Origin: an uncultured Verrucomicrobiales bacterium
GTDB taxonomy: Bacteria; Verrucomicrobiota; Verrucomicrobiia; Verrucomicrobiales; Akkermansiaceae
Length of the DNA: 64,000 nucleotides
Direction of reading: 5' to 3'
NCBI GenBank assembly: GCA_937905985.1
Contig: CALCWC010000026.1
Span: 24,376 to 88,375, forward strand
In this document: piece by piece, positions 34,222-55,961 of the stretch
Layout of the letters: every line of letters starts with the position of its first letter
How positions within the stretch are numbered: the stretch's first letter is position 1
Translations under genes and position numbers: made by a program
The notes under the pieces: generated by a model
The model's input: only the letters and a program-made list of their open reading frames with translations
The model's database searches: none
What the model was told of the DNA's origin: nothing

Positions 34222-34241
34222 CCCGCCGTTCCAACCTACAC

Positions 34242-34313
34242 AGGGCTATGGTGTAATTGGCAACACATCGGTTTCTGGCACCGCTATTCGGGGTTCGAGT
34301 CCCTGTAGCCCTA
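34242..34313 (+). tRNA. tRNA-Gln(CUG), copy 1
   Basis: Cloverleaf folded by hand: acceptor stem AGGGCTA/TAGCCCT, D stem GTGT/ACAC with GG in the loop, anticodon stem CGGT/ACCG, anticodon loop TTCTGGC (anticodon CTG), T stem CGGGG/CCCTG with loop TTCGAGT, discriminator A. CCA is not encoded. Confidence 0.75.
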
Positions 34314-34323
34314 CTCTCAAAGG

Positions 34324-34358
34324 CCGCCCGCTCACTGAGCCGGGCGGTTTCCTTTTTA
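34324..34358 (+). terminator. Intrinsic terminator after tRNA copy 1
   Basis: Stem CCGCCCG pairs with CGGGCGG, followed by TTTCCTTTTTATT. Confidence 0.65.
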
Positions 34359-35196: not shown

Positions 35197-35198
35197 AC

Positions 35199-35270
35199 AG
35201 GGCTATGGTGTAATTGGCAACACATCGGTTTCTGGCACCGCTATTCGGGGTTCGAGTCCCTGTAGCCCTA
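35199..35270 (+). tRNA. tRNA-Gln(CUG), copy 2 (identical)
   Basis: By my reading, 35197-35278 is identical to 34240-34321 over 82 bp. No promoter motif lies upstream. Confidence 0.75.
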
Positions 35271-35280
35271 CTCTCAAAAA

Positions 35281-35308
35281 CGTCCGGCTTACCCCCGGGC
35301 GTTTTTTT
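35281..35308 (+). terminator. Intrinsic terminator after tRNA copy 2
   Basis: Stem CGTCCGG pairs with CCGGGCG (one G-T pair), followed by a T7 run. Confidence 0.65.
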
Positions 35309-39070: not shown

Positions 39071-39082
39071 GGGAAAGTGGAT

Positions 39083-42000: not shown

Positions 42001-42229
42001 CCAACACCACCTTCGGCATCAGCAGGGCCGTCTTGCCGCCCATATTGTCGGCATCGCCGGATTTCACCTTCTCCGCCAAGTACTCCTTGAGCCTGCGCCC
42101 GCTCTCAGCCGTGGGCACCACCACCGTGGCATGCGCAAAATCGCGCGCGCGCTTGGCCGCCAGTTCCAACAAAAGGTCGCCAACCTCTTCCACGGCAGAC
42201 CTCTCCCAGCCTATATGTTCGATATTCAT
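39083..42229 (-). CDS. addB: AddB-like PD-(D/E)XK nuclease subunit
   Basis: 1048 aa, ending 12 nt upstream of addA. The C-terminal nuclease motif is RADRIDRKP...WRIIDYKT...QLPLYAHW. No clear Walker A or Fe-S cysteine cluster was seen by eye. Confidence 0.8.
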   Translation of the reverse strand: MNIEHIGWERSAVEEVGDLLLELAAKRARDFAHATVVVPTAESGRRLKEYLAEKVKSGDADNMGGKTALLMPKVVLVGHLISSEHPRAATAQEEFAAWVEVLSAQPPHEKWPHLFPEQITEKHLFTWAMNAASSLASLHSLLEKYEVTTQGVVKHLNGGFAAPETDLQKWKGVTDNEVLRWGEIQQIFNAVESTLDRWDRIPAWKVRADEVAHLRHHRPGTLLFVACIPEITPQTESYLQAVERRWPGTVTVWVNAPNEEQWRAMFDAAHCGRPKVGPWSVYEPNPGTLRDEQIYVEGTAVKMAQRAVACAKGVAPEDVVLASCDASFSPYIETEFRRYGWQLHLPEGRTMMNTDALAIPGQLAACCAEPESVAALEPLLRNVVVQRCFAREGWDGYAFGLVLDKLVKLYFPARTGYLLDLLNVKKHLPALRNAIGKLPGAETEADPEATDELDVIFLERDRRAEYSFYASDVCRFVQRCREDLPAALKELCDRLHQRCAQDGGSTAVEEDEEAAARAAARVAGYGAAVSAFKATLAEFKAFLDRHPMDSRKALAILDHLLSQSGMQVQTQRREHTHADLLGWRELPYSRGGTIILTGFHHGCVPEAVAHDSFLPDSVKEALGLPCAKAREARDMFILMSLLMRKNCNVRILLSRMSADGSGSLVSPSSLLLHCSADELVPRVKDKLYREIPVEDDGADHGRVWRLRGGGADEPKAAGMESIALLGPGNDNKFRNMKFSPSDINAFLTCPLRFWMKQILGISTWDIHPDDKVEMEANEFGNMVHHLAEDVARHYPAMKEGLTEDEVKHYAQERLEARFAERYGQTRLASLEIQRQRIADLLPAFVHWHFTGLQDGWECYDCEHKVTDWEIPLQDGSVAKLNMRADRIDRKPCEGGYTWRIIDYKTHEYKPWSKHTSTMADEKYFEELMPGFPLLVWKERGRCWTDVQLPLYAHWLKETMQCSEFPAVAYYNMPRKPGRPAAYSEMTEMSAAPGAWENVMQWAKSAMLCMKDGLCLYSAESLGRTSYSAFSAMANLQDPRNLFGNLRNL

Positions 42230-42489: not shown

Positions 42490-43536
42490 CTACCCCTGCG
42501 GCGGGGTGTCGATTCCCAGCTCGGTGAGCAGGCCGCGGGAGGGCTTGGAGGCCTGCTTGAAGGCGTTGCGGATGGTGGAGGCCTCCCGCTCGCCCGCCTC
42601 GGAAAGGCGGCGCAGCAGGTCCCGCGTGTCCAGCTCCCTGCCGGTGGGAATGGAGATGCGCAGCACCGTGCCGTGGAAATCCGTGGCGCCGCGCTCGAAC
42701 GTGCCGTCCTTGCGCAGCGAGATGTAGTTGCCGTAGCTGGCCAGCAGGAACTTGCCGCCAAGCTCGCGGCAGATGCCGCTCACCATGTACAGCCCGTAGC
42801 CGGAGTTCTCCCACTGGCTGCGCTTGTTCGGCTTGTACGAGGGCTGGAAGGATTGCGAGATGCCCGGCTTCACCGCCCACTGCAGCGCCTGTCCGTTGTC
42901 TGTGATGTACTCGCGGTGCTTGGGGTTGCTCGCCAGGCTGTTGAAGATGCCTATGCCCTCGTCCAGGATGGTGAGCTCTGCAAAGCTGCTCTTCCACCTC
43001 TGCGCGCATATCCACATCTCGTCCGCGTTCCCGTGCTCCGGGATGTTGCGCAGGATCTCGCGGATGAGGAAGCCCATCAGCGGCGCAAGCTCCGGCGTGT
43101 GCGCCGTGACCACCCGCGCCAGCCGCTGCGCCTGCTCCTCTATCAAATCGCCCGCCTCCAGGAACCGCCGCTGCTCGAACGCCGCCTTGAACAGCTCCTT
43201 CATGGACAGGCGGGTGATGGGCAAATGCGTGCCCTCGTCCTGCTCCGCCTCCTTCAGCCCCTCCACCGGAAGTGCCTCATCCAGCAGGTGTTTCATCCCC
43301 ATGTACCCCGCATAGTTCTCCACCGCATCGCGTTGAAACCCGGTGAAACTCAACCGGCACCCCTTCCCTGCCAGCACCCGCCGCAGCGCCGTCCCCAGCG
43401 CCAGCATGTAGAACGATGTCAAGACATTCACCCGCCCAAAGTCCAACTCCACCTCATCACCCGCCCCAATCTCCGGCAGTGCGGCAATATACTCCAGCAC
43501 CTCCCGAGATCCCGATTTCGGCAGCTCCAGTCTCAT
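42490..43536 (-). CDS. STAS-like domain + GHKL (HATPase_c, RsbW/SpoIIAB-like) ATPase
   Basis: The ATG at 43534-43536 gives a 348-aa product. The N-terminus (VELDFGRVNVLTSFYMLALGTAL) resembles STAS/anti-anti-sigma domains. The GHKL boxes are: N box REILRNIPEHG, G1 ILDEGIGIF, G2 NSGYGLYMVSG. Confidence 0.7.
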   Translation of the reverse strand: MRLELPKSGSREVLEYIAALPEIGAGDEVELDFGRVNVLTSFYMLALGTALRRVLAGKGCRLSFTGFQRDAVENYAGYMGMKHLLDEALPVEGLKEAEQDEGTHLPITRLSMKELFKAAFEQRRFLEAGDLIEEQAQRLARVVTAHTPELAPLMGFLIREILRNIPEHGNADEMWICAQRWKSSFAELTILDEGIGIFNSLASNPKHREYITDNGQALQWAVKPGISQSFQPSYKPNKRSQWENSGYGLYMVSGICRELGGKFLLASYGNYISLRKDGTFERGATDFHGTVLRISIPTGRELDTRDLLRRLSEAGEREASTIRNAFKQASKPSRGLLTELGIDTPPQG

Positions 43537-43653
43537 GCAACCACTATACACGAAACCCCATCTGCAGTCAACGTGCGGCGCGGAAGAAAAAAATTGACTT
43601 CTTTCTGCATGTGATGCAAGATACCGATAAGGACTCAACCTGAACACAAAGCC

Positions 43654-45393
43654 ATGCCAGAAGAAAACGAAGGAAATCAATTTCGCTCACAAGGCACTGC
43701 AAACGAGCAAAACTCAGACCGCTCCATCACTGCAGAAAATTTTAAAAGATACTTTGAAACCCACAAAAGCAATTTTCAAGACTCCGCGCTCGATGATATT
43801 ATTAATCCAAAGAAATGGTGGGGTCTCGAAGGCAGGCTAAAAACAGAGAAATGCTTTGATGTTACGGATGGCGAGAATAAACTTTCCGTAAATGAATTGA
43901 ATTTATGCCCGCAATATAACAACTTCCAAGGTGCTTTCACTCTAGCAAAAGTGCATCATGTTGTAGTCATAAATTTTGAAACAAACGATGATACGCAAAA
44001 TCTTCAATGTATTAGAATAAAATACTTCTATTATTTATGCGATAAGTTAAAGGACCACCCAAGCAACTGGAAGATATTCATCCAAGATGAGTCAAGCCCA
44101 CACGCAAAACAGAATCCCTCAGCGCGGAATCGCCGCATGCTAAAAATTTTCTTTGACAACGGCATTACCGGAACGACGGATGAGGATTTTCAAAAATGGA
44201 TCGGACTCTTCGATGAAGTATATAACTTTCTGGCTGAAAACCGACCAAGTCCAGATGAGCTCAACACGATTCCAACGCCAGACTACACTTCAGGCTGGAA
44301 GGTACGTGGCCCTTTGGAAGGTTTTTGCCAAAAAACATACAACGCGAACATGAATACAGATACTGAAAAAAAAGATAAGATAGAAGCTCGCAACTGCATA
44401 TGGGCGGGTGCCCCAGGAACGGGTAAGAGTTTTAAATTGAATCAAGCAGCGAACATCCAGTTCGAAGATAAAACCATGCGTGTAACATTCCACCCGGAAT
44501 ACACCTACTATGATTTTGTGGGAACATACCGTCCCAGAATGGCAAAGAACGACGAGGGCAATACGATGGGGAAAATAGAGTATGCCTTTGTTCCCGGACC
44601 GTTTGCAAAGATGCTCAAAAAAGCCCTTTGGAACCGAAATGCAAATTACTGCCTGATTATTGAGGAAATCAACCGCGCCAACGCGGCGGCCGTGTTTGGC
44701 GATGTGTTCCAGCTATTGGACCGAGCTTCACAAAACAGCAAGGACGGCAGCGTGGTAAAGCATGAAAGCGAGTACGCTATTTGTCCCTCCGAGGAACTTT
44801 ACGAGTACTTGCTGAATGAGCGGGAAGGCAACAAAGAGATGCCAGGCACACGCCCAAGTGACGGTATCATGAACGAACTGCGCTTGCCCGACAACTTGTA
44901 CATCTGGGCCACCATGAACAGCGCAGACCAGGGGGTGTTCCCCATGGACACGGCATTCAAACGCCGCTGGAGCTTTGAGAACATGGCTATCAATCCCTCA
45001 GAGGGGCAAGATCCTGACTACGATTCAAAGAGCGCTTGGGACAAGATTCGCAGGGGCATCAACGATATGCTGCTGAAACATCATGTGCAGGAAGACAAAC
45101 TGATGGGATACTACTTCTTGAAGAAGGAAGAGCGGGATAGCAAAGAAAACTTGGAAAAAGCACTTAAAGAGAAGGTGTTGCTGTACTTGTTTGAGGATGC
45201 TGCAAAACCATTTAGGGGAAAAATATTCAAGAATGAGTACAATACTTGTGAAAAATTGCGAGGGAAACTCGTTGTAGATGATCCGAATCTCGGCGTATTC
45301 TTTGAAAAAGTGTGGGATGGCATACCGCAACAGTCGAAGCCAGAGGACACTAAACAAGCAACTGAAGACGTTGACAACGACGACAATCCGTAA
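43654..45393 (+). CDS. McrB-like AAA+ GTPase (LlaJI.R1-like) with uncharacterised N-terminal domain
   Basis: 579 aa. Walker A is GAPGTGKS, Walker B is LIIEEINRAN. McrB signatures MNSADQG and AFKRRW are present. The first ~240 aa are AT-rich and unassignable by eye. Confidence 0.85.
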   Translation: MPEENEGNQFRSQGTANEQNSDRSITAENFKRYFETHKSNFQDSALDDIINPKKWWGLEGRLKTEKCFDVTDGENKLSVNELNLCPQYNNFQGAFTLAKVHHVVVINFETNDDTQNLQCIRIKYFYYLCDKLKDHPSNWKIFIQDESSPHAKQNPSARNRRMLKIFFDNGITGTTDEDFQKWIGLFDEVYNFLAENRPSPDELNTIPTPDYTSGWKVRGPLEGFCQKTYNANMNTDTEKKDKIEARNCIWAGAPGTGKSFKLNQAANIQFEDKTMRVTFHPEYTYYDFVGTYRPRMAKNDEGNTMGKIEYAFVPGPFAKMLKKALWNRNANYCLIIEEINRANAAAVFGDVFQLLDRASQNSKDGSVVKHESEYAICPSEELYEYLLNEREGNKEMPGTRPSDGIMNELRLPDNLYIWATMNSADQGVFPMDTAFKRRWSFENMAINPSEGQDPDYDSKSAWDKIRRGINDMLLKHHVQEDKLMGYYFLKKEERDSKENLEKALKEKVLLYLFEDAAKPFRGKIFKNEYNTCEKLRGKLVVDDPNLGVFFEKVWDGIPQQSKPEDTKQATEDVDNDDNP

Positions 45394-45405
45394 CCCCCCG
45401 TGATA

Positions 45406-46833
45406 ATGGCAGAGGAGAAACTGGCACAGGTGTGGGCTAGGGAGCAGCAGCACTACAACTCTCAGCGGATGCGGGAGTTGCTGGGCATCGGCTATTCCGA
45501 GGAAGATGACAAACGCTTGTCAGATGCCCTGCAGCAGCTTAAGTGTGCCAAAATCCTGCGCACGGTCGTTACAAAATCTGACGAAGCCTATGATACAGAA
45601 GACGATGATACGGACTCATCTTGGGACAGTCGGTACATAAACAAATACGACTACTGTTTCCGGTATGTGGGATTGATTCAGTTCGGCAAGCGTGTTCTAT
45701 ATATTTTGCCCAAGTATTGCGCCGAAGTAAAAGACAACGCCCAATCAGAAGCGCGCATGGAGTCATTCCGCACCGTCATGCGGGTCATTGCCCGCTACAA
45801 AAAGGAAGCCAGCAGCACAGGCGAGGAGGATTCGGAGGATGCTTGGCATGATTTTCTTCATGTCATGGTGGAGCTGGTGATGGATTTCCAGGCGAACGGC
45901 GTATACCGGGTGAATGAGAACATCAACGAGCTGAACGGCAAGGGGCGCATCATGTGGCCGCGCACCATCCGGAGGGTGTTGCCGCTCATTCAGGACGGAC
46001 GCCCCTACTACATGGAGTTGCACACGCGCAGGAAGCAGGCGGACACTGCCCATATCATCACGCGCCTGCACAAATATCTCGTATGGCAAGCGTGGCAGAA
46101 ATTGGAGGAGCTCCATCTGTCGGATTTGCTGGAGCTTCCCGCCATAACAGATCCGCCCGACCACGATGAGGAATTTTCAGATTTGGAATATCTGGTGCGC
46201 ATAATCAAGAAAGAGCAAACCCAGCGGTTCGACAACCGCCGGCGGTACCTGCTGGACCTGATGCTGCGTTATCTTGAGGAGAAGGAAGAAGATACGACGG
46301 ACGGCATATACCTGTTCGGCAAGAGCGGTTTCCATGTTGTGTGGGAGGAAGCCTGCCGCGTGGCGTTCGGCATGGAGAAATCCACCCCGGAGCAGATGGA
46401 GGCATCCAAGCCGAAATGGAATTTTGTTGGCGCCAAAGACGTATACCGCGGCTCTGCACTGGAAGCCGACATGGTGAAAGTTGACGGGAACAAACAGACT
46501 TTCACCATTTATGATGCCAAATACTATGTACCCCCAAAAGGTTGCGAGGCGGAGGATATCGTGAAAAAAATGCCAGGCGGCTATGATGTCATCAAGCAGC
46601 AGTTGTACGAGCTGGCACTGAAAAACAGATACCCGGAGTACAAAATCACCCAGAATGTGTTCATCTTACCTATGATGGAAGGCGATGATTCTGGCGATGG
46701 TGTCAACATGGGCACGGTCCGCGTGCCCATGCTTGAGGAACTGGAGCTTGCGCCTGTGGAAATATGCAAGATGAAACCTGACACCATTTGGGAAGCCTAC
46801 CTGAATCACAACACCATCGACATTCCAAAATGA
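45406..46833 (+). CDS. LlaJI/McrC-like restriction endonuclease subunit
   Basis: The start is the ATG at 45406 (or the GTG at 45400), 12 nt after the McrB-like stop. The C-terminal PD-(D/E)XK-like segment is LEADMVKVDG...TIYDAKYYVPP. 475 aa. Confidence 0.7.
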   Translation: MAEEKLAQVWAREQQHYNSQRMRELLGIGYSEEDDKRLSDALQQLKCAKILRTVVTKSDEAYDTEDDDTDSSWDSRYINKYDYCFRYVGLIQFGKRVLYILPKYCAEVKDNAQSEARMESFRTVMRVIARYKKEASSTGEEDSEDAWHDFLHVMVELVMDFQANGVYRVNENINELNGKGRIMWPRTIRRVLPLIQDGRPYYMELHTRRKQADTAHIITRLHKYLVWQAWQKLEELHLSDLLELPAITDPPDHDEEFSDLEYLVRIIKKEQTQRFDNRRRYLLDLMLRYLEEKEEDTTDGIYLFGKSGFHVVWEEACRVAFGMEKSTPEQMEASKPKWNFVGAKDVYRGSALEADMVKVDGNKQTFTIYDAKYYVPPKGCEAEDIVKKMPGGYDVIKQQLYELALKNRYPEYKITQNVFILPMMEGDDSGDGVNMGTVRVPMLEELELAPVEICKMKPDTIWEAYLNHNTIDIPK

Positions 46834-46843
46834 TATAAGCCCC

Positions 46844-48118
46844 TCACTCCGTGGCTCCGGCGGCTTGGAGGAGTTGGATGCATTCCGCGTGGGTGGGGGT
46901 GCAGTTGTTTTCGCGGGCGGCTTTGAGGGCGGTCATGCCGTGGAAGCGACCGCCTTGGACCTTGGCGTTCACGTTGGCGCCGGACTCGATGAGCAGGCGG
47001 GCGCAGTCTGCGTGGCCGCGGTGGCAGGCCATCGACAACGCGGTGATGCCCTCCTGGGTCTCGGCATTCACATCCGCGCCCGCCTCGATGAACTGGCGGG
47101 CGAGCTCCCCGAAATTGCGGAAGACCGCGTATATCAGGGGGGTGTAGCCCTCTTTGTCCTGCACGGAGACATCCGCGCCAGCGGCCAGGAGAAGGTGCGC
47201 GCATTTACCGTACCCCTCTTGGCATGCTTTCATCAGAGCGGTCTCACCATACGAGTTTCTGGCGTTCACGTCCGCCCCCGCCGCAAGCAGCACGCGGGCG
47301 CAATCCTCATCGGAGCATGAAAAGAGGAGAGGTGTATTGCCGAGGCTGTCGGTGGCATTGACATCTGCGCCCGCCTCAATGAGCATGCGCGTGAATTCCA
47401 CGGATCCCCCACCGCAGATACGCATCAGGAGCGTGCTGCCGTCCGGACCCGTGCCAACCCAGTCGCGCGCACCCGCGGCGTTCACATCCGCGCCCGCGGC
47501 AATGAGTATGCGCGCGAGCTCCATATCGTTCATCATGCAGGCATACGCCAGTGGAGTGGAGCCATGCCAGTCCGCAGCGTTCACGTCGGCTCCGGATTCC
47601 AGCAGCAGTCGGGCGAGCTCCGCTTTGCCCCTCTTGCAGACGCGCATCAGGGCGGTCATGCCCCACACGTCCGCGGCATTCACGTCCGCGCCCGCTTCAA
47701 GGAGCGGCCGCACAAACTCCCCGTTCCCCTCACTGCACGCATACATCAAGGGAGTTTGCCCTTCCCAGTCCCTGGCGTTCACGTCCGCGCCCGCATCCAG
47801 CAGCATGCGGAAGCACTCCGCGTGGCTTTTCCGCAAGGCGGCATGCAAGGCGGTTGCGCCGCCACGATTCTTGAATTCCCTTTTGTAGTACACATTCACG
47901 TCAGCCCCGGCGGCAATGAGCGCCCGCAGGCAGTCCGCGCGCCCCGACACAGCGGCGAGCGTCAGCGGCGTGTGTCCGTCAAAGACCTTGTGATTCATCT
48001 TCACATTCACGTCAGCCCCGGCGGCAATGAGCGCCCGCAGGTCATCGAGCTCGCCCATGTACGCGGCGTAGAGGAGGTCGTTCTCCATGGAATTGGTGTT
48101 TGGATCGCTTGTTTTCAT
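46844..48118 (-). CDS. Ankyrin-repeat-only protein (~11-12 repeats)
   Basis: 424 aa with an ATG start and no signal peptide. It has 33-residue repeats with TPLxxAxxxGxxxxxxxLIxAGADVN. A perfect 40-bp internal DNA repeat occurs at 47891-47930 and 48002-48041. Confidence 0.9.
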   Translation of the reverse strand: MKTSDPNTNSMENDLLYAAYMGELDDLRALIAAGADVNVKMNHKVFDGHTPLTLAAVSGRADCLRALIAAGADVNVYYKREFKNRGGATALHAALRKSHAECFRMLLDAGADVNARDWEGQTPLMYACSEGNGEFVRPLLEAGADVNAADVWGMTALMRVCKRGKAELARLLLESGADVNAADWHGSTPLAYACMMNDMELARILIAAGADVNAAGARDWVGTGPDGSTLLMRICGGGSVEFTRMLIEAGADVNATDSLGNTPLLFSCSDEDCARVLLAAGADVNARNSYGETALMKACQEGYGKCAHLLLAAGADVSVQDKEGYTPLIYAVFRNFGELARQFIEAGADVNAETQEGITALSMACHRGHADCARLLIESGANVNAKVQGGRFHGMTALKAARENNCTPTHAECIQLLQAAGATE

Positions 48119-48139
48119 ATCGGTGTATGGGGTTGGGGG

Positions 48140-49525
48140 TTACTCGGCAAAGCCGATGGGTTTGCGGTGGTTGTTTCGGGCTTCCTGATGTTGGAGCAAA
48201 TCGTCGATGGCGAGGGAAAGGTCCGCCTCCTCCACGCGCTTGCGGCGGGCGCGGGCGGCACACATGGCGGCCTCGTCCACCGCGTGGGTCACATCGGAGA
48301 GCGGGTGGTCCAGCAAGCGCTCCGCGTGCGGGCGCAGGCCAAACTCCTGGTGCGGGCGCTTCTCCAGCGCATGCGCCAGCACCTCCTGCACCTCCTCCAG
48401 GGAGGGCATGCCCACCCTGATGTGCGTGCCCAGACGCCCGGTGCGCAGGATGGCGGGGTCGACAGACTCGATGTGGTTGGTCATGCCGGCCACTAGGATA
48501 TGCCTCTCCTCGGCACGCTGCAGGCATTGCAAAAAGCTGTCCACCTCCTCCACCCTGTGGTTGTCATGTTCGGAAAGATTGCCGCGGTTGCGGGTGAAAG
48601 CCTCCATTTCGTCAATGATGACGATGGAGGGAGCGTTCTCTGCGGCCTCTTGGAACTTCTCCTGAATCTTCTTGGAGGTACCGTGGATGAAGGTGCTGCC
48701 AATGCTGCCGGAATCGATGCGAACGATATTCCACTTGAGATGTTCTGCCAGACGCTCCACGGCAAAGGTCTTGCCGCAGCCGGGCGGCCCCTCCAGGATG
48801 AACCCCTTGGGGAAGTGGATGCCGAGCAGGGCGTAGTGTTCACTGTTGTTGACGATGTCCACCACCTGCTCGTTGAGGAACTTTTCCAGTTCCTCGCGGC
48901 CGCGAAGCCGGAAGGGCCCCTCCGTGGGATTCAGGAGCTTGCGCTCCTCCTCGCGGGCGGCTGCGTCCGCGCGCAGCTGCTCCAGCTCCGCCTTGAACTC
49001 GTCCGCCACCTCCAGCGGCTTCTCGTCCACATGCTCGTCGAAGTAGTGCACCATGGCGGTGTACACGCGCGGGGGCATCATGCGGGCGGCGTAGGCGTCC
49101 GCAAGCTCGCGGTTGAAATGCTGGCGGATGAGCACCGTGAACGTGGCATCGTCCACGTCCTCCAAGTTCATGATACGGAGCCTCTTCACAAACTCCTCAA
49201 TGCCCGGAATCTGCCGCGTCGGGCCCATCTTCTTGAAGAGCCTCAGCACCTCTTCCTTGCGTTCTTCCTGCGGAGACTTCTCCGGCTTGCCGTCGGTTTC
49301 GGTTTCCTGCTTGTCGAGCACCCGCCTGCGACGCAGCGGACGCGGCATCTCCGGCTCGCCCTTGAGCTTGTCGATGGCATCCAGGAGGATTCGGATTTCG
49401 CGTTCATGCGCCTTGGCCTGGTCGACCAGCAGGTCCGCCTGCTGCTTGACCATTTCTTCCAGTTCCCGCTTCTTCATAGACTTTTTCGGGGCCGTGCCCT
49501 TTGTGTTTTTGGTGCTCTTTTGCAT
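48140..49525 (-). CDS. Classic-clade AAA+ ATPase with Lys/Glu-rich coiled-coil N-terminal half
   Basis: 461 aa with an ATG start. Walker A is GPPGCGKT, Walker B is IVIIDEME. The second region of homology is DPAILRTGRLGTHIRVGMP. The stop lies 21 nt upstream of the ankyrin gene ATG. Confidence 0.9.
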   Translation of the reverse strand: MQKSTKNTKGTAPKKSMKKRELEEMVKQQADLLVDQAKAHEREIRILLDAIDKLKGEPEMPRPLRRRRVLDKQETETDGKPEKSPQEERKEEVLRLFKKMGPTRQIPGIEEFVKRLRIMNLEDVDDATFTVLIRQHFNRELADAYAARMMPPRVYTAMVHYFDEHVDEKPLEVADEFKAELEQLRADAAAREEERKLLNPTEGPFRLRGREELEKFLNEQVVDIVNNSEHYALLGIHFPKGFILEGPPGCGKTFAVERLAEHLKWNIVRIDSGSIGSTFIHGTSKKIQEKFQEAAENAPSIVIIDEMEAFTRNRGNLSEHDNHRVEEVDSFLQCLQRAEERHILVAGMTNHIESVDPAILRTGRLGTHIRVGMPSLEEVQEVLAHALEKRPHQEFGLRPHAERLLDHPLSDVTHAVDEAAMCAARARRKRVEEADLSLAIDDLLQHQEARNNHRKPIGFAE

Positions 49526-49533
49526 AAGTTCTA

Positions 49534-49562
49534 TTTATAATGAAAGTTTGCTTAACGTTGAA
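49534..49562 (-). promoter_or_regulatory. Putative promoter of the AAA+/ankyrin operon (leaderless)
   Basis: The minus strand reads TTCAAC-17nt-TATAAA. The -10 element ends 8 nt before the ATG at 49525. Confidence 0.45.
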
Positions 49563-49680: not shown

Positions 49681-49774
49681 TGACTTCGAGTGTGTTGTGA
49701 TTCACAGGATGGTCGCAGTATAATACAACGGATCCCCCTTGTCAAGCCAAATCGTCTTTCCCTTGTCGATTTTC

Positions 49775-50170
49775 CCGGCCAACACCCACCCGGCATCGCC
49801 GCACTCTTCCAATGCAACGGAAACCAGGTGGCCTACGCAGAGCAGGACATCGACGCCATCGATTCCCTCAACGGAAAGGAAGTCTGGGTTTCCGGCACCA
49901 TCGACCGCCTCGTCCTCACCATGCAAGGCGGCGCCGTCGCCGCCGCAAGCATCATCGACTTCAAGACCGACAAGCGCCGCGGCCCCACCCCCCAGGACGA
50001 GGACGCCACCCTGCGCGAACACCACTTCCCCCAAATGAAGGCCTACCACAACCTCGTCTCCTCCGCCTTCTCCCTCCCCTCCCACAAGGTCACCGTCACC
50101 CTAGTCTCCTGCCCCTCCAACTCCGCTCCCCCCCCGCGCCATCCCCTACCCACCGGACACCCAGTGGTAA
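49775..50170 (+). pseudogene. 3' remnant of a second addA-like helicase-nuclease gene (junction repeat R1)
   Basis: It encodes ...HPPGIAALF...AEQDIDAIDSLNGKEVWVSGTIDRLVL...IIDFKTDK...FPQMKAYHNLV..., collinear with the last ~125 aa of AddA (NEQDIDYIDTMDGKEVWVSGVIDRLVV...IYDYKT...AAQMSAYRKAV). No 5' part is present. Confidence 0.7.
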
Positions 50171-50564: not shown

Positions 50565-51644
50565 ATGGAAACATCCAAGATTTTTGAGCTTCAACAGCAT
50601 TTTGACACCCTTGCCCACCACATACAAGGCGAACCCGCCTTGGAATATTGGACTGCCAGAGAATTGCAGCCCCACTTCGGATACAGCAAATGGGAGAATT
50701 TCGAATCCGCCATCGAGAAAGCAATGACATCTTGCCAAAATGCCGGCGGAACAGTTTCTGACCACTTCCTTCGCTTTGAAGAATCCCGCACAACAGGGAA
50801 AGGTGCCTCTCTGTCCATTTGCAACTACAAACTTACCCGTTATGCATGCTACCTCATTGCTCAGAACGGCGATCCAAGGAAATCGGAAATTGCCTTTGCT
50901 CAAAGTTATTTTGCGGTTCAAACCCGTCGCACAGAGATAATAAGCGAGCGTATTGCATTCATAGAGCGTTCTACTGCCCGCAATCAATTGAGAGCAGCAG
51001 AAAGAGAATTATCCCAAAATATTTATGAACGAGGGGTCGATGATGCGGGATTTGGACGAATCCGTTCCAAGGGTGACCAAGCTCTATTCGGTGGAAATAC
51101 GACGGCTGACATGAAGGCAAAATTCAATGTGGCCCAGCACCGCCCCTTGGCGGATTTTCTTCCGACCGTGACTATAGCGGCAAAGAATCTTGCCACCGAG
51201 ATGACTAATTACAATGTCAAGCAGAATGATTTGCATGGTGAGCAGCCTATCACAAAAGAGCATATTCACAACAATGCCTCTGTTCGCAAAATGTTGACTG
51301 ACCGCGGAATCTATCCTGAAAACCTGCCTGCAGAGGAAGATTTTGCAAAACAGGAACGGAGAGCCAAGGCTGACGCAAGGAAAATTCAAGCCTCTAGACT
51401 TACCCAAGCAACAGAGACAGTTTCCCTGCCGAACCAAACCTCCCTTCAGCTTCCCCATCCTGATGATGAAAAACTTCTGCGCTTCCTTGCCGCCCACCCT
51501 GCCGCTTCTTACAAGGATGTCAAACAAGCTCTCGACATTAGTCCGGCTACATTCTATCGCCGCACGGCGGCTCTGCAAAAAATAGGGATTCTTGAGAGAT
51601 GCGGATCCGCTCGCAAAGGCACTTGGAAAGTATCTTTCCCCTGA
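50565..51644 (+). CDS. dinD: DNA-damage-inducible protein D (DinD) with C-terminal wHTH extension
   Basis: 359 aa. WTARELQPHFGYSKWENF...LTRYACYLIAQNGDPRKSEIAFAQSYFAVQTRR closely parallels E. coli DinD. The tail (...YKDVKQALDISPATFYRRTAALQKIGILER) looks like a winged helix. Confidence 0.85.
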   Translation: METSKIFELQQHFDTLAHHIQGEPALEYWTARELQPHFGYSKWENFESAIEKAMTSCQNAGGTVSDHFLRFEESRTTGKGASLSICNYKLTRYACYLIAQNGDPRKSEIAFAQSYFAVQTRRTEIISERIAFIERSTARNQLRAAERELSQNIYERGVDDAGFGRIRSKGDQALFGGNTTADMKAKFNVAQHRPLADFLPTVTIAAKNLATEMTNYNVKQNDLHGEQPITKEHIHNNASVRKMLTDRGIYPENLPAEEDFAKQERRAKADARKIQASRLTQATETVSLPNQTSLQLPHPDDEKLLRFLAAHPAASYKDVKQALDISPATFYRRTAALQKIGILERCGSARKGTWKVSFP

Positions 51645-51905: not shown

Positions 51906-52100
51906 GGCCGCGGCCCCACCCCCCAGGACGAAGACGCCACGCTGCGCGAACGCCACTTCCCCCAAATGAAGGCCTACCACAACCTCGTCTGCACCGCCTT
52001 CAACCTCCCCTCCCACAAGGTCACCGTCACCCTCGTCTCCTGCCCCTCCAACTCCGCCTCCCCCCGCGCCATCCCCTACCCCCCGGACACCCAGTGGTAA
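51906..52100 (+). pseudogene. addA-like 3' end, junction repeat R2
   Basis: 51909-52100 aligns with 49976-50170 (about 195 bp, roughly nine-tenths identical by eye). It encodes GPTPQDEDATLRERHFPQMKAYHNLV...KVTVTLVSCPSNSA... Confidence 0.7.
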
Positions 52101-52202
52101 CGCAGAACCGCCCACCACCAATTCCTGGGCATCCCATGCACCGCCATGGATTCCCGCCCCCGGCACACTTGCGCGCATTTGCGACATTTTTTCATTTGGG
52201 GC

Positions 52203-52232: not shown

Positions 52233-52335
52233 GGAACCACGAAGCGGTTCCGAAAGGACGTCGCCCCGCGACGCATAAATCCGCATGTTCTATTTGCCGC
52301 CAGGTCTCAAGCCCGGCGGCATCTTATTTCCACCC

Positions 52336-53316
52336 ATGTCCATCAAACCGTTCAAGACGTACGCTGAACAGGCATCCATCCTTATCTCCCGCGGATTGGG
52401 GGATGAGGCTATTCGGGGCGTGATGGAGCGCCGCTTGGCTGCTGTCGGGTACTATCGCTTGTCGGCATACAGCTACCCGTTTCGGAAAACGGTAGAAAAC
52501 GACGGGCAGGTACAGAAACTGAATGAATTCCGCGAGGGAACAACGTTTGACCGAGTGTGGGATTATTACCTGTTTGACCGACGTCTGCGTTTGTTGATTA
52601 TCGATGCCATTGAGCGCGTGGAAGTGGCGTGGCGCGTCCAAATCGCATACGAATGGGCATTACGGGAAGGCATCCCAAATCCGCAGAGCAGGCCAGGCAG
52701 CTTTGCCACCAAGTTCCGCAAGATATCGAAGGAGGAGCGCCTGAAAACTTTTCAGTACTACTACAACATCAGTACCGAGGACTTTGCCTGTCACCATCGG
52801 GAAGATTTGAAAATCGCAAAGGTGGAGGATTTGCCCGCATGGGTGTTTATCCAGTTTTCCACATTCGGCAGCTTGCACAAACTGTTTGAGGATGGTTTGC
52901 CTTTAGGACTCAAGCAAACGATTGCACGTCGTTTCGGCTTTCAAGATGAGGGCTTTTTCACCCAGGTGTTCGCCTTGCTCCTGGCTGCCAGAAACGCATG
53001 CGCCCATCATGCTCGCGTATGGAACAAGGAATGGTTGTACGATGCCGAGAACGATAAGCATCCTTTGCGAAAGAGGTTCGTCTCCATTTGCGGCCTGACA
53101 TCGGATCCGAACTGGTCCTCGCTCATGGCGCAATTCGACCGCACCAAAACGGCATTCCTACTCTCCTTGCTGTGCGTCCTGCTGAAGAAAACGGCATCTA
53201 CCAGTCATTGGAAGGACAGGGTAAAGAAGCTCTTGACAGAACGGGCGCCCGTTCCCAGCATAACCCGGGAAATGGGCTTCCCTGTAGGCTGGCAGCAGCA
53301 TCCCCTGTGGAAATAA
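52336..53316 (+). CDS. Abi-like (Abi_2/AbiD-F family) abortive infection protein
   Basis: The ATG at 52336 gives MSIKPFKTYAEQASILISRGL...LAAVGYYRLSAYSYPFR...LAARNACAHHARVWN, hallmarks of Abi_2. 326 aa. Confidence 0.8.
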   Translation: MSIKPFKTYAEQASILISRGLGDEAIRGVMERRLAAVGYYRLSAYSYPFRKTVENDGQVQKLNEFREGTTFDRVWDYYLFDRRLRLLIIDAIERVEVAWRVQIAYEWALREGIPNPQSRPGSFATKFRKISKEERLKTFQYYYNISTEDFACHHREDLKIAKVEDLPAWVFIQFSTFGSLHKLFEDGLPLGLKQTIARRFGFQDEGFFTQVFALLLAARNACAHHARVWNKEWLYDAENDKHPLRKRFVSICGLTSDPNWSSLMAQFDRTKTAFLLSLLCVLLKKTASTSHWKDRVKKLLTERAPVPSITREMGFPVGWQQHPLWK

Positions 53317-53390
53317 CCCTCCCCCCGCGCCATCCCCTACCCGCCGGATACGCCGTGATAACGGCCACCACCCATTTACCCGAATTCAGG
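53317..53390 (+). repeat. Junction repeat R3 (tail of addA-like gene plus downstream flank)
   Basis: CCCTCCCCCCGCGCCATCCCCTACCCGCCGGATACGCCGTGATAA starts immediately after the Abi stop. It matches 50121-50170 and 52052-52100. The downstream CGAATTCAGG is shared with R1. Confidence 0.7.
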
Positions 53391-53594: not shown

Positions 53595-55961
53595 ATGGCC
53601 CCTATTCAATCCAAAAAAGAGATGAGTGAAGAGGATATCAAACGCCACTTCATCACACCCGCTTTGGAACGGCGGTGGGACAAGATGCAAATCTCCATGG
53701 AGGCCCCGATTACAGACGGCAGGGTCAATATCCAGGGCAACAAGCCCGTCCGGGAGAATCCCAAGAAGGCGGATTACCTGCTCTACTTGAACGACAACAA
53801 CCCCATTGCCGTGGTGGAGGCCAAGGACAACAAGCACAGCATCACGGCGGGCTTGCAGCAGGCCATGGAGTACGCGCAGATGATGGATTTGCCCTTTGCG
53901 TACAGCTCCAACGGCGACGGCTTCGCCGAGCATGATTTCCTGACCGGGAAGGAACGCATCTTCGGCATGGAGGAGTTCCCCACGCACGATGAGCTGGTGG
54001 CGCGCTTCTACGCGGCGCAGAACGGCGGCCAGGGTATCTCCGAGCCCCAGCAAAGGGCCATTGAGCAGCCCTATTATTCCGATATCAAGACACCCACCCC
54101 GCGCTACTACCAGCGCGTGGCCATCAACCGCACCATGGATGCCGTGGCGCGCGGACAAGACCGCATCCTGCTCGTCATGGCCACCGGCACGGGCAAGACC
54201 TACACCGCGTTCCAGATTGTCCACCGCCTGCTCAAAAGCGGCATGAAGCGCCGGGTGCTCTACTTGGCAGACCGCAATTTCCTGGTGGACACCTCCATCC
54301 AGCAGGATTTCAAGCCGCTGGAGAAGGTCACCCACAAGGTCAACTACCAGAAGGAGGACCCCGCCACCACCACCTCCTACCAGATGTATTTCTCCCTGTA
54401 CCAGCAGCTCGTGGGCGAGGACGGAGAGGAGGAGCATTACCGCACCTTGTTCACGGAGGACTTCTTCGACCTCATCATCGTGGACGAGTGCCACCGCGGC
54501 TCCGCCAAGGCGGATAGCCAGTGGCGCCGCGTGCTGCAGTATTTCAAGGGTGCCACGCAAATCGGCATGACCGCCACGCCCAAGGAAACCACGTACGCAT
54601 CCAATATCGACTACTTCGGCGAACCTCTATACACCTACAGCCTCAACCAGGGTATACAGGATGGTTTCCTCGCTCCCTTCCGCGTGATTACGCCACTCCT
54701 CAACATTGCAGAAGGGTGGCGGCCGTACAAGGACCAGGTGGACAAGTTCGGCAACCCCATCGAGGACCGCATCTACAACAACTGCGATTTCGACCGACAT
54801 ATCGTCCTAGAGGACCGAACGAGGGAGGTTGCCCAAACTGTCACCAACTTCCTGAAACGCACGGACCGCATGGCTAAGACCATTGTGTTCTGCGTGGATG
54901 AGGATGCGGCAGAGCGCATGCGCATGGAGCTCTCCAACATGAACGCCGACTTGGTGAAGCAAAACCCGGATTACGTGGTGCGTATCACCGGCAGCGATGT
55001 CTACGGCAAGAAAAAGCTCTCAGCCTTCCTCTCCGTGGGTGAGAAATACCCGGTCATTGCCACCACCTCCATGCTGCTCACCACTGGCGCAGATTGCAAG
55101 ATGACCAAGCTCATCGTGCTGGACAAGACCATCGGCTCCATGTCCGAGTTCAAGCAAATCATCGGGCGCGGCACCCGCTTGCGCTTCAATGACGGAAAGA
55201 CGCATTTCACCGTCATGGATCTGCGGCAGGTCACGCGCCTTTTTGCCGACCCGGATTGGGACGGTCCCATCATCCAAGACCCGGACTACGACCCCGAAGG
55301 AGGCAATGATTTGCAGGGAGGGGAAAATCTCCCGCCAGATCCGCCGCTGCCCCCGCTGCCGCCTCACCAGCACCACTACAAGCCCATCGTAGCCGCGGAC
55401 GGCTGCCGCGTGGAAACCACCCTCGTCACCGTGGCATACTATGATGCCGACGGCAGGCTGCTGCGCCAGGAAAGCATCACGGACTACACCAAAAAGAACG
55501 TCATGGCCGAGTACGCCTCGCTGGACGGTTTCATCCGCCACTGGTCCGCCGCCGACAAGAAGGCGCAAATCAAGTCCATGTTTGCAGAAAAGGGCATCGA
55601 CCTGGAGGGCGTGAAGAAAGAACAGGGCATGGAGGGTGTGGACGATTTCGATTTCATCTGCCACGTCGCGTTCGGCAGAAAGCCCCTCACCCGCCGTGAG
55701 CGTGCCAACAACGTCCGCAAGCAGGATTTCTTCGGCAAGTACAGCGGCCCCGCACGAGAAGTGCTGGAGGACCTGCTGGACCGCTACGCGGATGTGGGCG
55801 TGTACGAGCTGGAGGACATGAACGTGCTGAAGCTGGAGCCCTTCTGCCGAAGGGGCGCCGTGGCGCAAATCATCGGTGCCTTCGGCGGCAGGGACAACTA
55901 CCTCAGCGCTGTCCGCGAACTGGAGCGCGCCATCTATTCATCACAGGCTGTTAATTTATGA
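53595..55961 (+). CDS. hsdR: Type I restriction enzyme R subunit (EcoEI-like C-terminal domain)
   Basis: 788 aa. The N-terminal PD-(D/E)XK motif is DYLLYL...AVVEAKD. Helicase motifs are MATGTGKT, DECHR and MTATP. The C-terminal region resembles EcoEI_R_C. Confidence 0.92.
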   Translation: MAPIQSKKEMSEEDIKRHFITPALERRWDKMQISMEAPITDGRVNIQGNKPVRENPKKADYLLYLNDNNPIAVVEAKDNKHSITAGLQQAMEYAQMMDLPFAYSSNGDGFAEHDFLTGKERIFGMEEFPTHDELVARFYAAQNGGQGISEPQQRAIEQPYYSDIKTPTPRYYQRVAINRTMDAVARGQDRILLVMATGTGKTYTAFQIVHRLLKSGMKRRVLYLADRNFLVDTSIQQDFKPLEKVTHKVNYQKEDPATTTSYQMYFSLYQQLVGEDGEEEHYRTLFTEDFFDLIIVDECHRGSAKADSQWRRVLQYFKGATQIGMTATPKETTYASNIDYFGEPLYTYSLNQGIQDGFLAPFRVITPLLNIAEGWRPYKDQVDKFGNPIEDRIYNNCDFDRHIVLEDRTREVAQTVTNFLKRTDRMAKTIVFCVDEDAAERMRMELSNMNADLVKQNPDYVVRITGSDVYGKKKLSAFLSVGEKYPVIATTSMLLTTGADCKMTKLIVLDKTIGSMSEFKQIIGRGTRLRFNDGKTHFTVMDLRQVTRLFADPDWDGPIIQDPDYDPEGGNDLQGGENLPPDPPLPPLPPHQHHYKPIVAADGCRVETTLVTVAYYDADGRLLRQESITDYTKKNVMAEYASLDGFIRHWSAADKKAQIKSMFAEKGIDLEGVKKEQGMEGVDDFDFICHVAFGRKPLTRRERANNVRKQDFFGKYSGPAREVLEDLLDRYADVGVYELEDMNVLKLEPFCRRGAVAQIIGAFGGRDNYLSAVRELERAIYSSQAVNL

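Follow-up and report, generated by a model that had tools for sequence, protein, structure and literature searches.

IetAS (Gao_Iet; NCBIfam 'IteA') is an anti-phage pair in which an AAA ATPase is accompanied by a subtilisin-like protease. Other classical AAA+ ATPases, PAN/Rpt/Mpa, carry an N-terminal coiled coil and an OB domain, and they end in an HbYX or GQYL docking motif. It has been known that ankyrin modules work with AAA+ rings: gankyrin/Nas6 acts together with the proteasomal Rpt3, and human Skd3/CLPB is an ankyrin domain fused to an AAA+ disaggregase. On such classical or Clp-type AAA+ rings the ankyrin module serves as an assembly factor, a regulator or a substrate-binding element. 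In the NLR/STAND-type sensors, which include the bacterial NACHT proteins, Avs and the fungal NLRs, an oligomerising P-loop NTPase is combined with a variable array of ankyrin, TPR or WD40 repeats. Finally, Cdc48/SpoVK-like ATPases with leucine-rich repeats (LRR) extend the type III-A CoCoNuT operons, which are of the McrBC type, and the authors regard these add-ons as possible stand-alone defensive cassettes (PMC11090510). In these add-ons, LRR and beta-barrel domains are fused to tandem ATPase domains, and vWA genes lie on either side (PMC11090510).

Here we describe a gene pair encoding an AAA+ ATPase and an ankyrin-repeat protein (AAA-ANK) in a window of 64,000 nucleotides, the whole stretch of DNA that was analysed, from an uncultured Verrucomicrobiales bacterium of the Akkermansiaceae (contig CALCWC010000026.1). 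A sequence-only reading of this window had reported two co-directional genes for a 461-aa AAA+ protein and a 424-aa ankyrin protein, with a gap of 21 nt between them, a McrBC-like system on one side and RM/Abi genes on the other, and a 3' end that lies 10 bp from a convergent LlaJI-like stop without a terminator. Our measurements and annotation agree with this description in each of these points, and place both ORFs, for which no strand had been given, on the minus strand. The ANK stop occupies 46844-46846 and the convergent LlaJI-type ORF ends at 46833, 10 bp away, and no terminator-like site was found between the two stops. The features of the pair and of its surroundings are as follows.

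42490..43560, minus strand: HATPase_c gene, conserved, closes the block and is co-directional with AAA-ANK (context)
43654-45393, plus strand: McrB-like AAA_5 GTPase, variable cargo (context, outside the pair)
45400-46833, plus strand: RE_LlaJI, LlaJI-type endonuclease, convergent variable cargo (43654..46833; context, outside the pair)
46844..48118, minus strand: ankyrin-repeat gene, 424 aa, ATG start, about 12 repeats and no other domain
46847..46951, minus strand: signature C-terminal cap, GRFHGMT...THAECIQLLQAAGATE, ANK residues 390-424
48119..48139, minus strand: intergenic spacer between AAA and ANK, 21 nt, CCCCCAACCCCATACACCGAT
48140..49525, minus strand: AAA+ ATPase gene, ORF of 461 aa, ATG start, alternative start Met17 at 49477
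48143..48163, minus strand: C-terminal tail KPIGFAE, which bears the conserved [RK]x[ILFM]GF motif
48173..48913, minus strand: AAA+ module, residues 205-451
48428-48460, minus strand: Arg-finger region, inside the AAA+ module
48476-48487, minus strand: sensor 1, inside the AAA+ module
48602-48625, minus strand: Walker B, inside the AAA+ module
48677-48697, minus strand: pore loop 1, STFIHGT, inside the AAA+ module
48767-48790, minus strand: Walker A, inside the AAA+ module
48944..49276, minus strand: lineage-specific helical N-domain, about residues 84-194, pLDDT 85-94 in the full model
49292-49360, minus strand: disordered basic linker, about residues 56-78 (AF2)
49364..49474, minus strand: long N-terminal Lys/Glu-rich helix, about residues 18-54 (AF2 secondary structure, pLDDT, composition)
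49717..49745, minus strand: promoter-like site TTGACA-17-TATACT, about 190 nt 5' of the AAA start, 11 of 12 consensus positions (consensus match only)
50565-51644: Bro-N/PDC-S13 neighbour
52285-53316: AbiD neighbour
53595-58890: type I RM neighbour
58965-61577: KAP NTPase neighbour

The ATPase belongs to the classical-clade AAA+ ATPases, and PF00004 matches it over positions 2-130 of 131 (E=1.7e-27, 97 bits). The motifs quoted in the sequence-only reading were located at residues 246-253 (GPPGCGKT), 301-308 (IVIIDEME) and 356-366 (DPAILRTGRLG). Walker A, Walker B, sensor 1 and both arginines are invariant across 36 family members, and pore loop 1 is F-I-H, not aromatic-hydrophobic-Gly. The best PDB relatives are VAT, Cdc48, Afg2 and Rpt, and the predicted fold (AF2, mean pLDDT 83.7) matches Rpt, p97 and PAN, with a proteasomal Rpt subunit as the best Foldseek match. 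The N-terminal half had been described as a coiled coil; the AF2 model contains the long Lys/Glu-rich helix, but the rest of this half is a linker plus a compact helical domain. When the N-domain was modelled separately, no fold match was found in the PDB (E>6), and its profile recovered only 16 representatives among 1.84 billion proteins, with identical architecture in all of them. A hydrophobic segment fitting a signal peptide or a transmembrane helix is absent from both the AAA and the ANK proteins.

When we compared the pair with the named systems, it resembled IetAS in being a two-gene module headed by a classical-clade AAA ATPase, and IetA was the best PADLOC match of the ATPase (E=5.5e-28, 96 bits, vs 97 bits for the generic PF00004). 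However, we rejected membership in IetA, as NF042959 (IteA) gave 83 bits vs a cut-off of 510, below FtsH (111) and PAN (109). In addition, the partner is here an all-ankyrin protein and not the S8 protease IetS, and none of the neighbours scanned matched a peptidase family. The curated cut-offs likewise exclude the ATPase from PAN (107-109 bits vs 500), FtsH, Cdc48 and CdvC. It has a long N-terminal helix but, unlike in PAN/Rpt/Mpa, a helical domain follows this helix instead of an OB fold, and the C-terminus is ...PIGFAE rather than one of their docking motifs. Gankyrin/Nas6-Rpt3 and Skd3/CLPB are eukaryotic, whereas the two components are here encoded by separate genes in a bacterial operon without a proteasome context, and no specific sequence relationship to either of them was found. 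With the NLR/STAND-type sensors the pair shares a variable repeat array with changes at the binding surface and a shuffled or variable repeat number, as well as an oligomerising P-loop NTPase. In place of a STAND switch, however, the pair has a classical AAA+ unfoldase with pore loops; its repeats form a protein of their own, and it lacks an effector domain. The CoCoNuT add-ons are similar in that a classical AAA+ ATPase and a repeat scaffold are found beside McrBC-type restriction (PMC11090510), while in the present locus there is only one AAA module, the ankyrin repeats are encoded by a gene of their own, and the McrBC branch is another one, the LlaJI type. The earlier statement that no named system fits the pair was borne out, with the IetA, PAN and FtsH models far below their cut-offs and no description found in the literature searched on AAA+/ankyrin defence, Hsp70/AAA+ defence and Tn7 cargo with Hsp70.

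The closest relative of the Akkermansia ATPase module is the AAA+ protein of an operon that consists of an Hsp70-like gene, an AAA+ gene and a variable gene (45-49% identity over residues ~200-458), and the score to these Hsp70-linked AAA+ proteins is ~230 bits vs ~100 bits for the generic AAA models. Several hundred such operons were detected in Proteobacteria, Firmicutes, Nitrospirota and other phyla; no name for them was found in the libraries or literature searched, and the operon is apparently undescribed. The Akkermansia pair has the AAA+ subfamily and the GF tail of this operon, but not its upstream Hsp70 gene or a homologous N-domain. First, the FxLxGRxxLExFFNE motif just before the AAA module is common to both. 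Second, both have a pore loop of the (Y/F)-I-H type. Third, both have the C-terminal [RK]x[ILFM]GF motif, which is located within the last 25 residues in 142/145 Hsp70-linked relatives, and the GF of the tail is present in 36/36 Akkermansia family members. Finally, a non-enzymatic gene lies immediately downstream in both. On the contrary, while the Hsp70-like gene is directly upstream of the AAA+ gene in 109/117 loci outside Akkermansia, the Akkermansia loci are without it, and neither the scanned genes of the window nor those of the annotated Akkermansia loci matched an Hsp70 family. The N-terminal domains are unrelated to each other (hhalign of the two profiles, probability 0.1%). The downstream gene encodes the ankyrin protein in Akkermansia but a J-like/helical, membrane or peptidoglycan-binding protein in the Hsp70-linked operon, and an ankyrin ORF was found in only 1/145 Hsp70-linked loci. 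The Hsp70-linked operon is accessory and mobile: it adjoins Tn7-like tnsD/tnsE genes on an Aeromonas plasmid, it is found on three further plasmids and 6 IMG/VR contigs, and integrases or restriction genes are among its neighbours. A scan of the JGI metagenomes gave Hsp70-linked relatives only and no more loci of the Akkermansia type, and a search of the phage database gave no match.

The Ank families match the ANK protein with E=2.7e-81 in 10 Pfam stretches, and 12 segments close on GADVN-like motifs, which is consistent with the ~11-12 repeats and the lack of an enzymatic domain reported from the sequence. The motif of the C-terminal cap occurs in every operon-linked ANK, and also internally in ANK forms that resemble two fused ANK genes, and it is missing from the other ankyrin genes of the same loci. 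Repeat number, N-terminal repeat sets, duplication and fusion all differ among the loci. The substitutions between ANK orthologues are enriched at the canonical ankyrin binding positions (0.44 vs 0.17, p=3e-4). Relaxed constraint alone would also be expected to let the surface of a repeat protein vary. PADLOC PDC-M72A matches ANK with E=6e-68 in three repeat stretches, as for any long ankyrin protein, and this match is probably repeat-driven; the PDC-M72 models were unmatched in the other nine proteins scanned, and no description of this PADLOC candidate was found in the literature searched. A homologue search with ANK as the query was swamped by generic ankyrin proteins and missed the known orthologues too.

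We then compared the pair among the related Akkermansia loci. An ANK orthologue follows AAA in 9/9 of them, and the 21-nt spacer is identical in six of the nine and has one mismatch in two more, while the flanking coding sequence is ~20% diverged, so that the two genes form a conserved operon, as had been proposed. All nine pairs represent one orthologous chromosomal locus of one narrow Akkermansia clade, in which AAA-ANK is followed by variable restriction cargo and then by the conserved HATPase_c. This cargo is the LlaJI-type McrBC pair, a type IIG enzyme (L081) or GmrSD (L082), and at least two restriction or defence systems lie within 10 kb in every annotated Akkermansia island locus. The defence context claimed earlier thus holds in that every annotated copy is found amid restriction or defence genes, but it comes from one locus without independent replication: since all copies are in one orthologous locus, the association with defence genes counts as one independent case only. 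All loci with enough flank have the pair, which was never seen to be absent or to have moved with other defence islands; this constant presence fits a lineage-specific resident gene and a defence system equally well.

Across these loci, the AAA proteins are 63-79% identical and the ANK proteins 61-73%, except that of L165 at 96%, whereas HATPase_c and two core genes are 88-97% identical (92-96% over the regions of HATPase_c aligned by BLASTP). The dN/dS values were 0.37-0.47 for AAA and 0.45-0.81 for ANK, so that the whole-gene values of the pair stay below 1, and those of HATPase_c were 0.16-0.23 in four of five genome pairs and 0.46 in the fifth. The dS of the pair was 2-4 times that of HATPase_c in the same genome pairs (0.27-0.58 vs 0.10-0.14). 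A recombination breakpoint relative to L165 is located inside the AAA gene, at the junction of the N-domain and the ATPase module (the 3' edge of the N-domain). The divergence of the AAA-ANK pair is rapid and mosaic, and these sequence comparisons support the view that it evolves like a conflict locus.

Taken together, we tentatively suggest, with somewhat less than even confidence, that the pair is an unfoldase with a variable ankyrin adaptor that acts in conflict with mobile elements. As a fixed, fast-diversifying resident of a restriction/defence hotspot, it would most likely target mobile-element proteins, which would make it a candidate defence or defence-support module and a credible candidate for a new kind of anti-phage module. 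The operon would encode a matched pair of cytoplasmic proteins, of which the ATPase is predicted to be a catalytically intact, single-ring, classical-clade AAA+ unfoldase. Its module probably descends from the AAA+ component of the Hsp70-like/AAA+/variable-gene operon, and in the narrow Akkermansia clade the Hsp70 partner would have been lost, and a new N-terminal helix and a small helical domain gained. ANK would be its dedicated partner, with a constant C-terminal cap and variable, recombining N-terminal repeats. As the putative specificity subunit, it would bind a target protein by its variable concave surface, and either the constant cap or the N-domain of the ATPase may couple it to the hexamer. 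The ATPase would then unfold or dismantle the bound target, perhaps handing it to a peptidase via the conserved C-terminal IGF tail, and the most likely targets would be proteins of phages or other mobile elements. The pair contains no effector domain, and the model therefore needs the unfoldase itself or an unlinked peptidase as the effector. A further-reading version, which we consider unlikely, is a new immune module that works by targeted protein destruction: the hypervariable, 'antibody-like' ankyrin protein would capture phage or anti-restriction proteins, the AAA+ protein would unfold them, and the IGF tail would dock on a peptidase, e.g. ClpP, while the Hsp70-linked operon would be an unrecognised chaperone-based conflict system on Tn7-like elements, plasmids and prophage-like contigs.

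Here, we need to consider that the pair might instead be a lineage-specific proteostasis or regulatory pair with a cellular substrate that happens to flank a hotspot, an alternative that is possible but somewhat doubtful. The pair would then belong to a family of AAA+ remodellers that has expanded in Akkermansia, here equipped with an ankyrin adaptor, and hitch-hiking with cargo exchange plus relaxed constraint would account for its divergence. Such a role is in keeping with the size of the family, which has up to 7 AAA modules per MAG (L002, L005, L011, L014); most of these modules have housekeeping genes around them, in an order that is shared between MAGs. The paralogous AAA genes of the same genomes are found without an adjacent ANK near FabI/GatB, FGase, DAHP synthase and saccharopine dehydrogenase, and strong conservation was seen for at least one paralogue (dN/dS 0.09). 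It is also in keeping with the occurrence of AAA-ANK in every sampled locus, always at the same chromosomal position, with the lack of a fitting PADLOC or NCBIfam defence model, and with the hotspot itself, where a duplicated tRNA-Gln and repeated copies of an AddA 3' end are independent signs of serial insertion. The sequence-only reading had held that a conserved locus outside defence contexts would speak against a defence system, and a part of this is what we found, as there is one locus, the pair is always present and paralogues lie among housekeeping genes. However, HATPase_c, which borders this cargo on the opposite side, is undiverged in its dS, so that symmetric hitch-hiking is not seen. 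Moreover, in genomes with ~95% identity between the neighbouring proteins, 44% of the ankyrin binding surface differs, and a conserved cellular ligand would hardly explain this. It is only at this locus that AAA genes are duplicated in tandem and ANK genes duplicated or fused, and the sister operon linked to Hsp70 is mobile; both argue against this alternative.

It is quite unlikely that the pair is an accessory to the adjoining restriction systems, which might, for instance, capture anti-restriction proteins of phages and unfold them, or govern how the restriction enzymes beside it are assembled or turned over. In all loci with sufficient flanking sequence, a restriction nuclease system does directly separate ANK from HATPase_c, and a type I RM operon on a contig with Firmicutes relatives carries, as its fourth gene, a homologue of HATPase_c (41% identity). 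The Cdc48/SpoVK-like ATPase-LRR add-ons of the McrBC-type CoCoNuT operons offer a parallel to such an arrangement (PMC11090510). Against this, the cargo comes from three unrelated enzyme classes, which makes a regulator directed at a specific enzyme unlikely, and it is convergently transcribed. The identity ranking of LlaJI also differs from that of AAA/ANK, with L001 being the closest for AAA/ANK and the most distant for LlaJI. In the same way, we rejected AAA-ANK as a part of the LlaJI system itself, the cargo being swapped for unrelated enzymes and its divergence being uncorrelated with that of the pair. The eukaryote-like ankyrin effector that the sequence-only reading had offered as an alternative is very improbable; it would be aimed at the animal host, with the ATPase as its chaperone or export ATPase. 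In its favour, host-associated bacteria typically use ankyrin-only proteins as effectors, the organism lives as a gut symbiont, and the best NCBIfam names for ANK are Legionella Dot/Icm Ank effectors. However, these matches come from the repeats alone (AnkY best, 186 bits vs a cut-off of 600), there is no signal peptide or hydrophobic segment, no secretion-system genes were found among the annotated genes of the window and the island loci, the surroundings are restriction and Abi genes, and the ankyrin surface varies between close relatives.

If the unfoldase-adaptor pair is active against mobile elements, it would represent a mechanism that is not represented among the named bacterial defence systems, namely a diversifying repeat protein that directs a stand-alone unfoldase, without a nuclease, NADase or membrane effector, and it would parallel the eukaryotic ankyrin-AAA+ partnerships. 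If it is only a chaperone with its adaptor, it would still be a clear case of a new N-domain and a new partner grafted onto an existing ATPase motor. The pair also points to a much larger unnamed family, the Hsp70-like/AAA+/variable-gene operons. In Akkermansia, a genus of medical interest, the locus marks a recombination hotspot that exchanges restriction systems, and this is relevant to the barriers that individual strains pose to phages and to genetic manipulation.

The region 5' of the AAA gene in the window contains the promoter-like site and a remnant of an AddA-type gene, and the 230 nt upstream of the AAA gene are ~70% conserved in L002, L082 and L164. Rfam gave no match above noise on the operon and its 5' leader. 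Met17 of the ATPase is conserved without exception, and most orthologues start there; comparison of these sequences suggests that the true start may be Met17, giving a protein of 445 aa.

Both genes of the pair were found on the minus strand, which the sequence-only reading had not given:

46844-48118, minus strand: ANK, the ankyrin gene, 424 aa
48140-49525, minus strand: AAA, the AAA+ ATPase gene, 461 aa

The two ORFs are separated by 21 nt (48119-48139), and only 10 bp separate the stop codons of ANK and the convergent RE_LlaJI gene, with no terminator-like site in this gap. The AAA protein matches PF00004 (E=1.7e-27) and contains the previously quoted motifs for Walker A, Walker B, and the arginine finger; the earlier description of an AAA+/ankyrin operon is confirmed. 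The ANK protein consists only of ankyrin repeats, approximately 12 in number, and no segment with the hydrophobicity of a signal peptide or a membrane helix was detected in either protein. In the AlphaFold2 model of AAA (mean pLDDT 83.7), a long N-terminal helix leads through a disordered basic linker into a compact helical domain (residues ~84-194), which is followed by a standard AAA+ module; the top structural matches of the model were proteasomal Rpt subunits, p97, and PAN. AAA holds every catalytic residue of a working classical AAA+ motor as well as the pore loop, and its real start may be the invariant Met17. In the first two ankyrin repeats of ANK, two 40-nt stretches (47891-47930 and 48002-48041) are 100% identical, which points to a recent within-gene duplication or gene conversion.

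An orthologous ANK directly follows AAA in all nine loci of the clade of closest relatives (the window and the homologue-bearing contigs L001, L002, L004, L081, L082, L164, L165, and L175; L083 encodes the same protein as L082). In a neighbour-joining tree built on the ATPase module, eight of the nine AAA genes group as one clade; the L175 AAA and the third AAA copy of L002, whose sequence was read there in the wrong frame, lie on long separate branches. The operon-linked ANK proteins have a common C-terminal cap, GRFxGxT...HxECxRL, which is absent from the other ankyrin genes of the same loci. ANK is a dedicated partner of AAA, co-transcribed with it in a predicted operon and kept in linkage. 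The constant parts of the pair are the ATPase module, the C-terminal IGF tail, the spacer, and the ANK cap, and the variable parts are the AAA N-domain and the N-terminal ANK repeats. The spacer at 48119-48139 is more conserved than the genes on either side: it is identical in six of the nine loci and differs by one base in two more, while the flanking coding sequence has diverged by ~20%.

The window represents part of the chromosome of an Akkermansia relative, and all full-length AAA homologues come from Akkermansia MAGs. Core genes (aconitase, MutS, polyprenyl synthase, and an FAD protein) extend to ~34 kb and resume at 62.3 kb with fucose isomerase. The first part of the island between them contains two tRNA-Gln genes, an AddAB-like pair, HATPase_c, a McrB-like/LlaJI pair, ANK, and AAA, and the remainder contains an AddA-type remnant, Bro-N/PDC-S13, AbiD, a type I RM system, and a KAP NTPase:

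34226-34335 and 35183-35292: two tRNA-Gln(CTG) genes in a 110-nt direct repeat, copies 92% identical and 957 bp apart, left edge of the island
34808-34897: 45-nt tandem duplication between the two tRNA-Gln(CTG) genes
35498-42229, minus strand: intact AddAB-like pair
42490-43560, minus strand: HATPase_c gene
43654-46833, plus strand: McrB-like/LlaJI-type pair
49788-50170, 51907-52102, and 53318-53363: remnant of the 3' end of an AddA-type gene, and repeats
58965-61577, plus strand: KAP-family P-loop NTPase, 870 aa, right edge of the island

The earlier description of a defence island is borne out. The 110-nt direct repeat looks like a duplicated attachment site, and the KAP NTPase stretch has a GC content of 0.40-0.43 compared with ~0.60 for the window. 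Although the adjoining core genes are >90% identical, the AddAB-like pair shares only ~30% identity with its counterparts in L004 and L081; together with the AddA-type remnant at 49.8-50.2 kb, which shows 95% DNA identity to the intact L081 gene, this suggests replacement of one AddAB type by the other. The remnant recurs as 159-nt and 46-nt direct repeats that flank the Bro-N/PDC-S13 cassette and the AbiD gene, suggesting serial cassette insertion at a single site.

Every pair locus with sufficient flank shows the gene order AAA, ANK, variable cargo, and HATPase_c, and the three constant genes share direction in all of these loci. The cargo, i.e. the restriction genes between ANK and HATPase_c, was as follows:

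Convergent LlaJI-type McrBC pair: window, L001, L002, L004, and L175; partial in L164
Type IIG enzyme: L081
GmrSD: L082

BLASTP identities between the pair-locus genomes were 91-97% for HATPase_c and two core genes, 63-76% for AAA, 61-73% for ANK, and 47-78% for the LlaJI and McrB-like proteins. The identity ranking of AAA and ANK is unlike that of the LlaJI pair, indicating separate modules. Since the pair loci represent one locus, from which the pair was absent in no case among those compared, the association with defence genes is consistent but unreplicated in independent genomic contexts. The sequence-only reading had proposed a candidate undescribed defence system, to be doubted if the pair were a conserved core locus outside defence contexts. 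A defence role stays plausible, although the support comes from this one locus. HATPase_c, with 92-96% identity in the aligned regions among Akkermansia loci, matched no PADLOC or NCBIfam model. The next relatives, at ~40% identity, are named as Firmicutes; one of them, a homologue with 41% identity, occupies the fourth position in a type I RM operon on a contig with Firmicutes relatives, and another (~40%) is a solo insertion with variable flanks. HATPase_c may be an unrecognised restriction-associated gene.

We calculated dS and dN/dS with the window as reference:

AAA: dS 0.31-0.56; dN/dS 0.37-0.47
ANK: dS 0.27-0.58; dN/dS 0.45-0.81
HATPase_c: dS 0.10-0.14 for three of the five pairs and 0.17 and 0.36 for the remaining two; dN/dS 0.16-0.23 for four pairs and 0.46 for the other one

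When the DNA of the window was compared with that of L165, the ATPase module and ANK were ~97% identical while the 5' half of AAA was only 30-66% identical, indicating a recombination breakpoint at the junction of the N-domain and the ATPase module. The ANK proteins have 10-14 repeats with an N-terminal repeat set that differs between loci; L004 has two ANK genes, and several loci show apparent fusions of two ANK with an internal copy of the cap. Substitutions among the ANK orthologues are enriched at the canonical ankyrin binding positions (2, 3, 5, 13, 14, and 33), where the mean pairwise difference is 0.44 vs 0.17 (p=3e-4). Such a distribution is consistent with a binding surface that keeps pace with changing ligands, but relaxed constraint on surface residues would give the same result, so the pattern is supportive and not decisive.

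The AAA family is expanded in Akkermansia: four loci of one MAG hold seven AAA modules between them, with some copies in tandem and one in-frame AAA-AAA fusion among them. In L002 (9998-12559), tandem copies 2 and 3 are fused in frame into an 853-aa ORF with two AAA modules; this ORF could represent a two-ring ATPase of recent origin, or else an artefact (assembly or pseudogene). The paralogous AAA genes (40-60% identity) have no ANK directly downstream, and their neighbours are housekeeping genes (a pilin-like gene and DAHP synthase; FabI and GatB; an autotransporter and FGase; saccharopine dehydrogenase), with synteny kept between MAGs. At a second locus, seen in two MAGs (L006:5244-9673 and L012:6725-11098), a paralogous AAA is transcribed divergently from a saccharopine dehydrogenase gene and from an ankyrin gene of unrelated type; the latter lies on the opposite strand from AAA and is as diverged as AAA (50% identity between the two MAGs for each, 90% for saccharopine dehydrogenase). 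The Akkermansia AAA N-domain occurs in only 16 of 1.84 billion representative proteins, all with identical architecture, and showed no PDB fold match.

Outside Akkermansia, the match is confined to the ATPase module (residues ~200-458, 45-49% identity). There, an Hsp70-like gene (~830 aa) lies directly 5' of the AAA+ gene in 109 of 117 loci, while the Akkermansia family has no accompanying Hsp70-like gene. This sister operon (L015-L080, L084-L163, L168-L173, and L183; for example L031:6809-12436) comprises 3-5 genes: the Hsp70-like gene, the AAA+ gene (~489 aa), and a variable third gene (encoding a J-like/helical protein of ~548 aa, a small membrane protein, or a zinc-ribbon/TPR protein), frequently followed by one for a peptidoglycan-binding protein. 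Any ankyrin ORF was found in only one of 145 Hsp70-linked loci. Both AAA+ families share a motif immediately N-terminal to the AAA module, a (Y/F)-I-H pore loop, and, at the C-terminus, an [RK]x[ILFM]GF tail (36/36 Akkermansia proteins, window 48143-48163; 142/145 Hsp70-linked proteins), which presumably resembles the IGF peptidase-docking loop of ClpX.

By sequence, the unnamed Hsp70-linked family is the closest to the Akkermansia AAA, but two of its defining features, the Hsp70 partner and the N-domain, are missing from the Akkermansia pair, and no profile similarity was found between the two N-domains. The gankyrin-Rpt3 pair and Skd3 are possible parallels to the AAA-ankyrin pair. In the literature, the closest analogy is provided by McrBC-type CoCoNuT operons, some of which are extended by a Cdc48/SpoVK-like ATPase with leucine-rich repeats (PMC11090510). 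Other candidates were rejected: PAN/Rpt, since AAA has no OB domain or HbYX motif and scores under the cut-off; IetAS, with a generic AAA score (83 bits vs a cut-off of 510) and no protease partner; and Dot/Icm ankyrin effectors, the best of whose models ANK matches at 186 bits vs a cut-off of 600. The match of ANK to PDC-M72A is probably accounted for by the repeats. The pair is best filed as a variant on the theme of an AAA+ unfoldase with a repeat adaptor, confined to a narrow lineage. The ankyrin protein would select targets, putatively proteins from mobile elements, and the ATPase would unfold them, with the constant elements joining ANK to the ATPase and possibly the ATPase to a peptidase. 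That the pair acts in conflict with mobile elements is quite possible, if slightly doubtful. The pair is notable for its unusual architecture, its fast mosaic evolution, and its connection to a large, uncharacterised family of Hsp70/AAA+ operons.

No description of the sister operon was found in the literature searched, nor any PADLOC or NCBIfam family name for any of its parts. The operon is accessory and is spread over many phyla. It has integrases, M78 peptidases, and a small number of restriction or OLD-type genes among its neighbours, and it was found on four plasmids and in six IMG/VR contigs. On one of these plasmids, pKAM471_1 of Aeromonas caviae, it adjoins Tn7-like tnsD/tnsE, and its genes carry no annotation beyond 'Hsp70 family protein', 'ATP-binding protein', and 'peptidoglycan-binding'.
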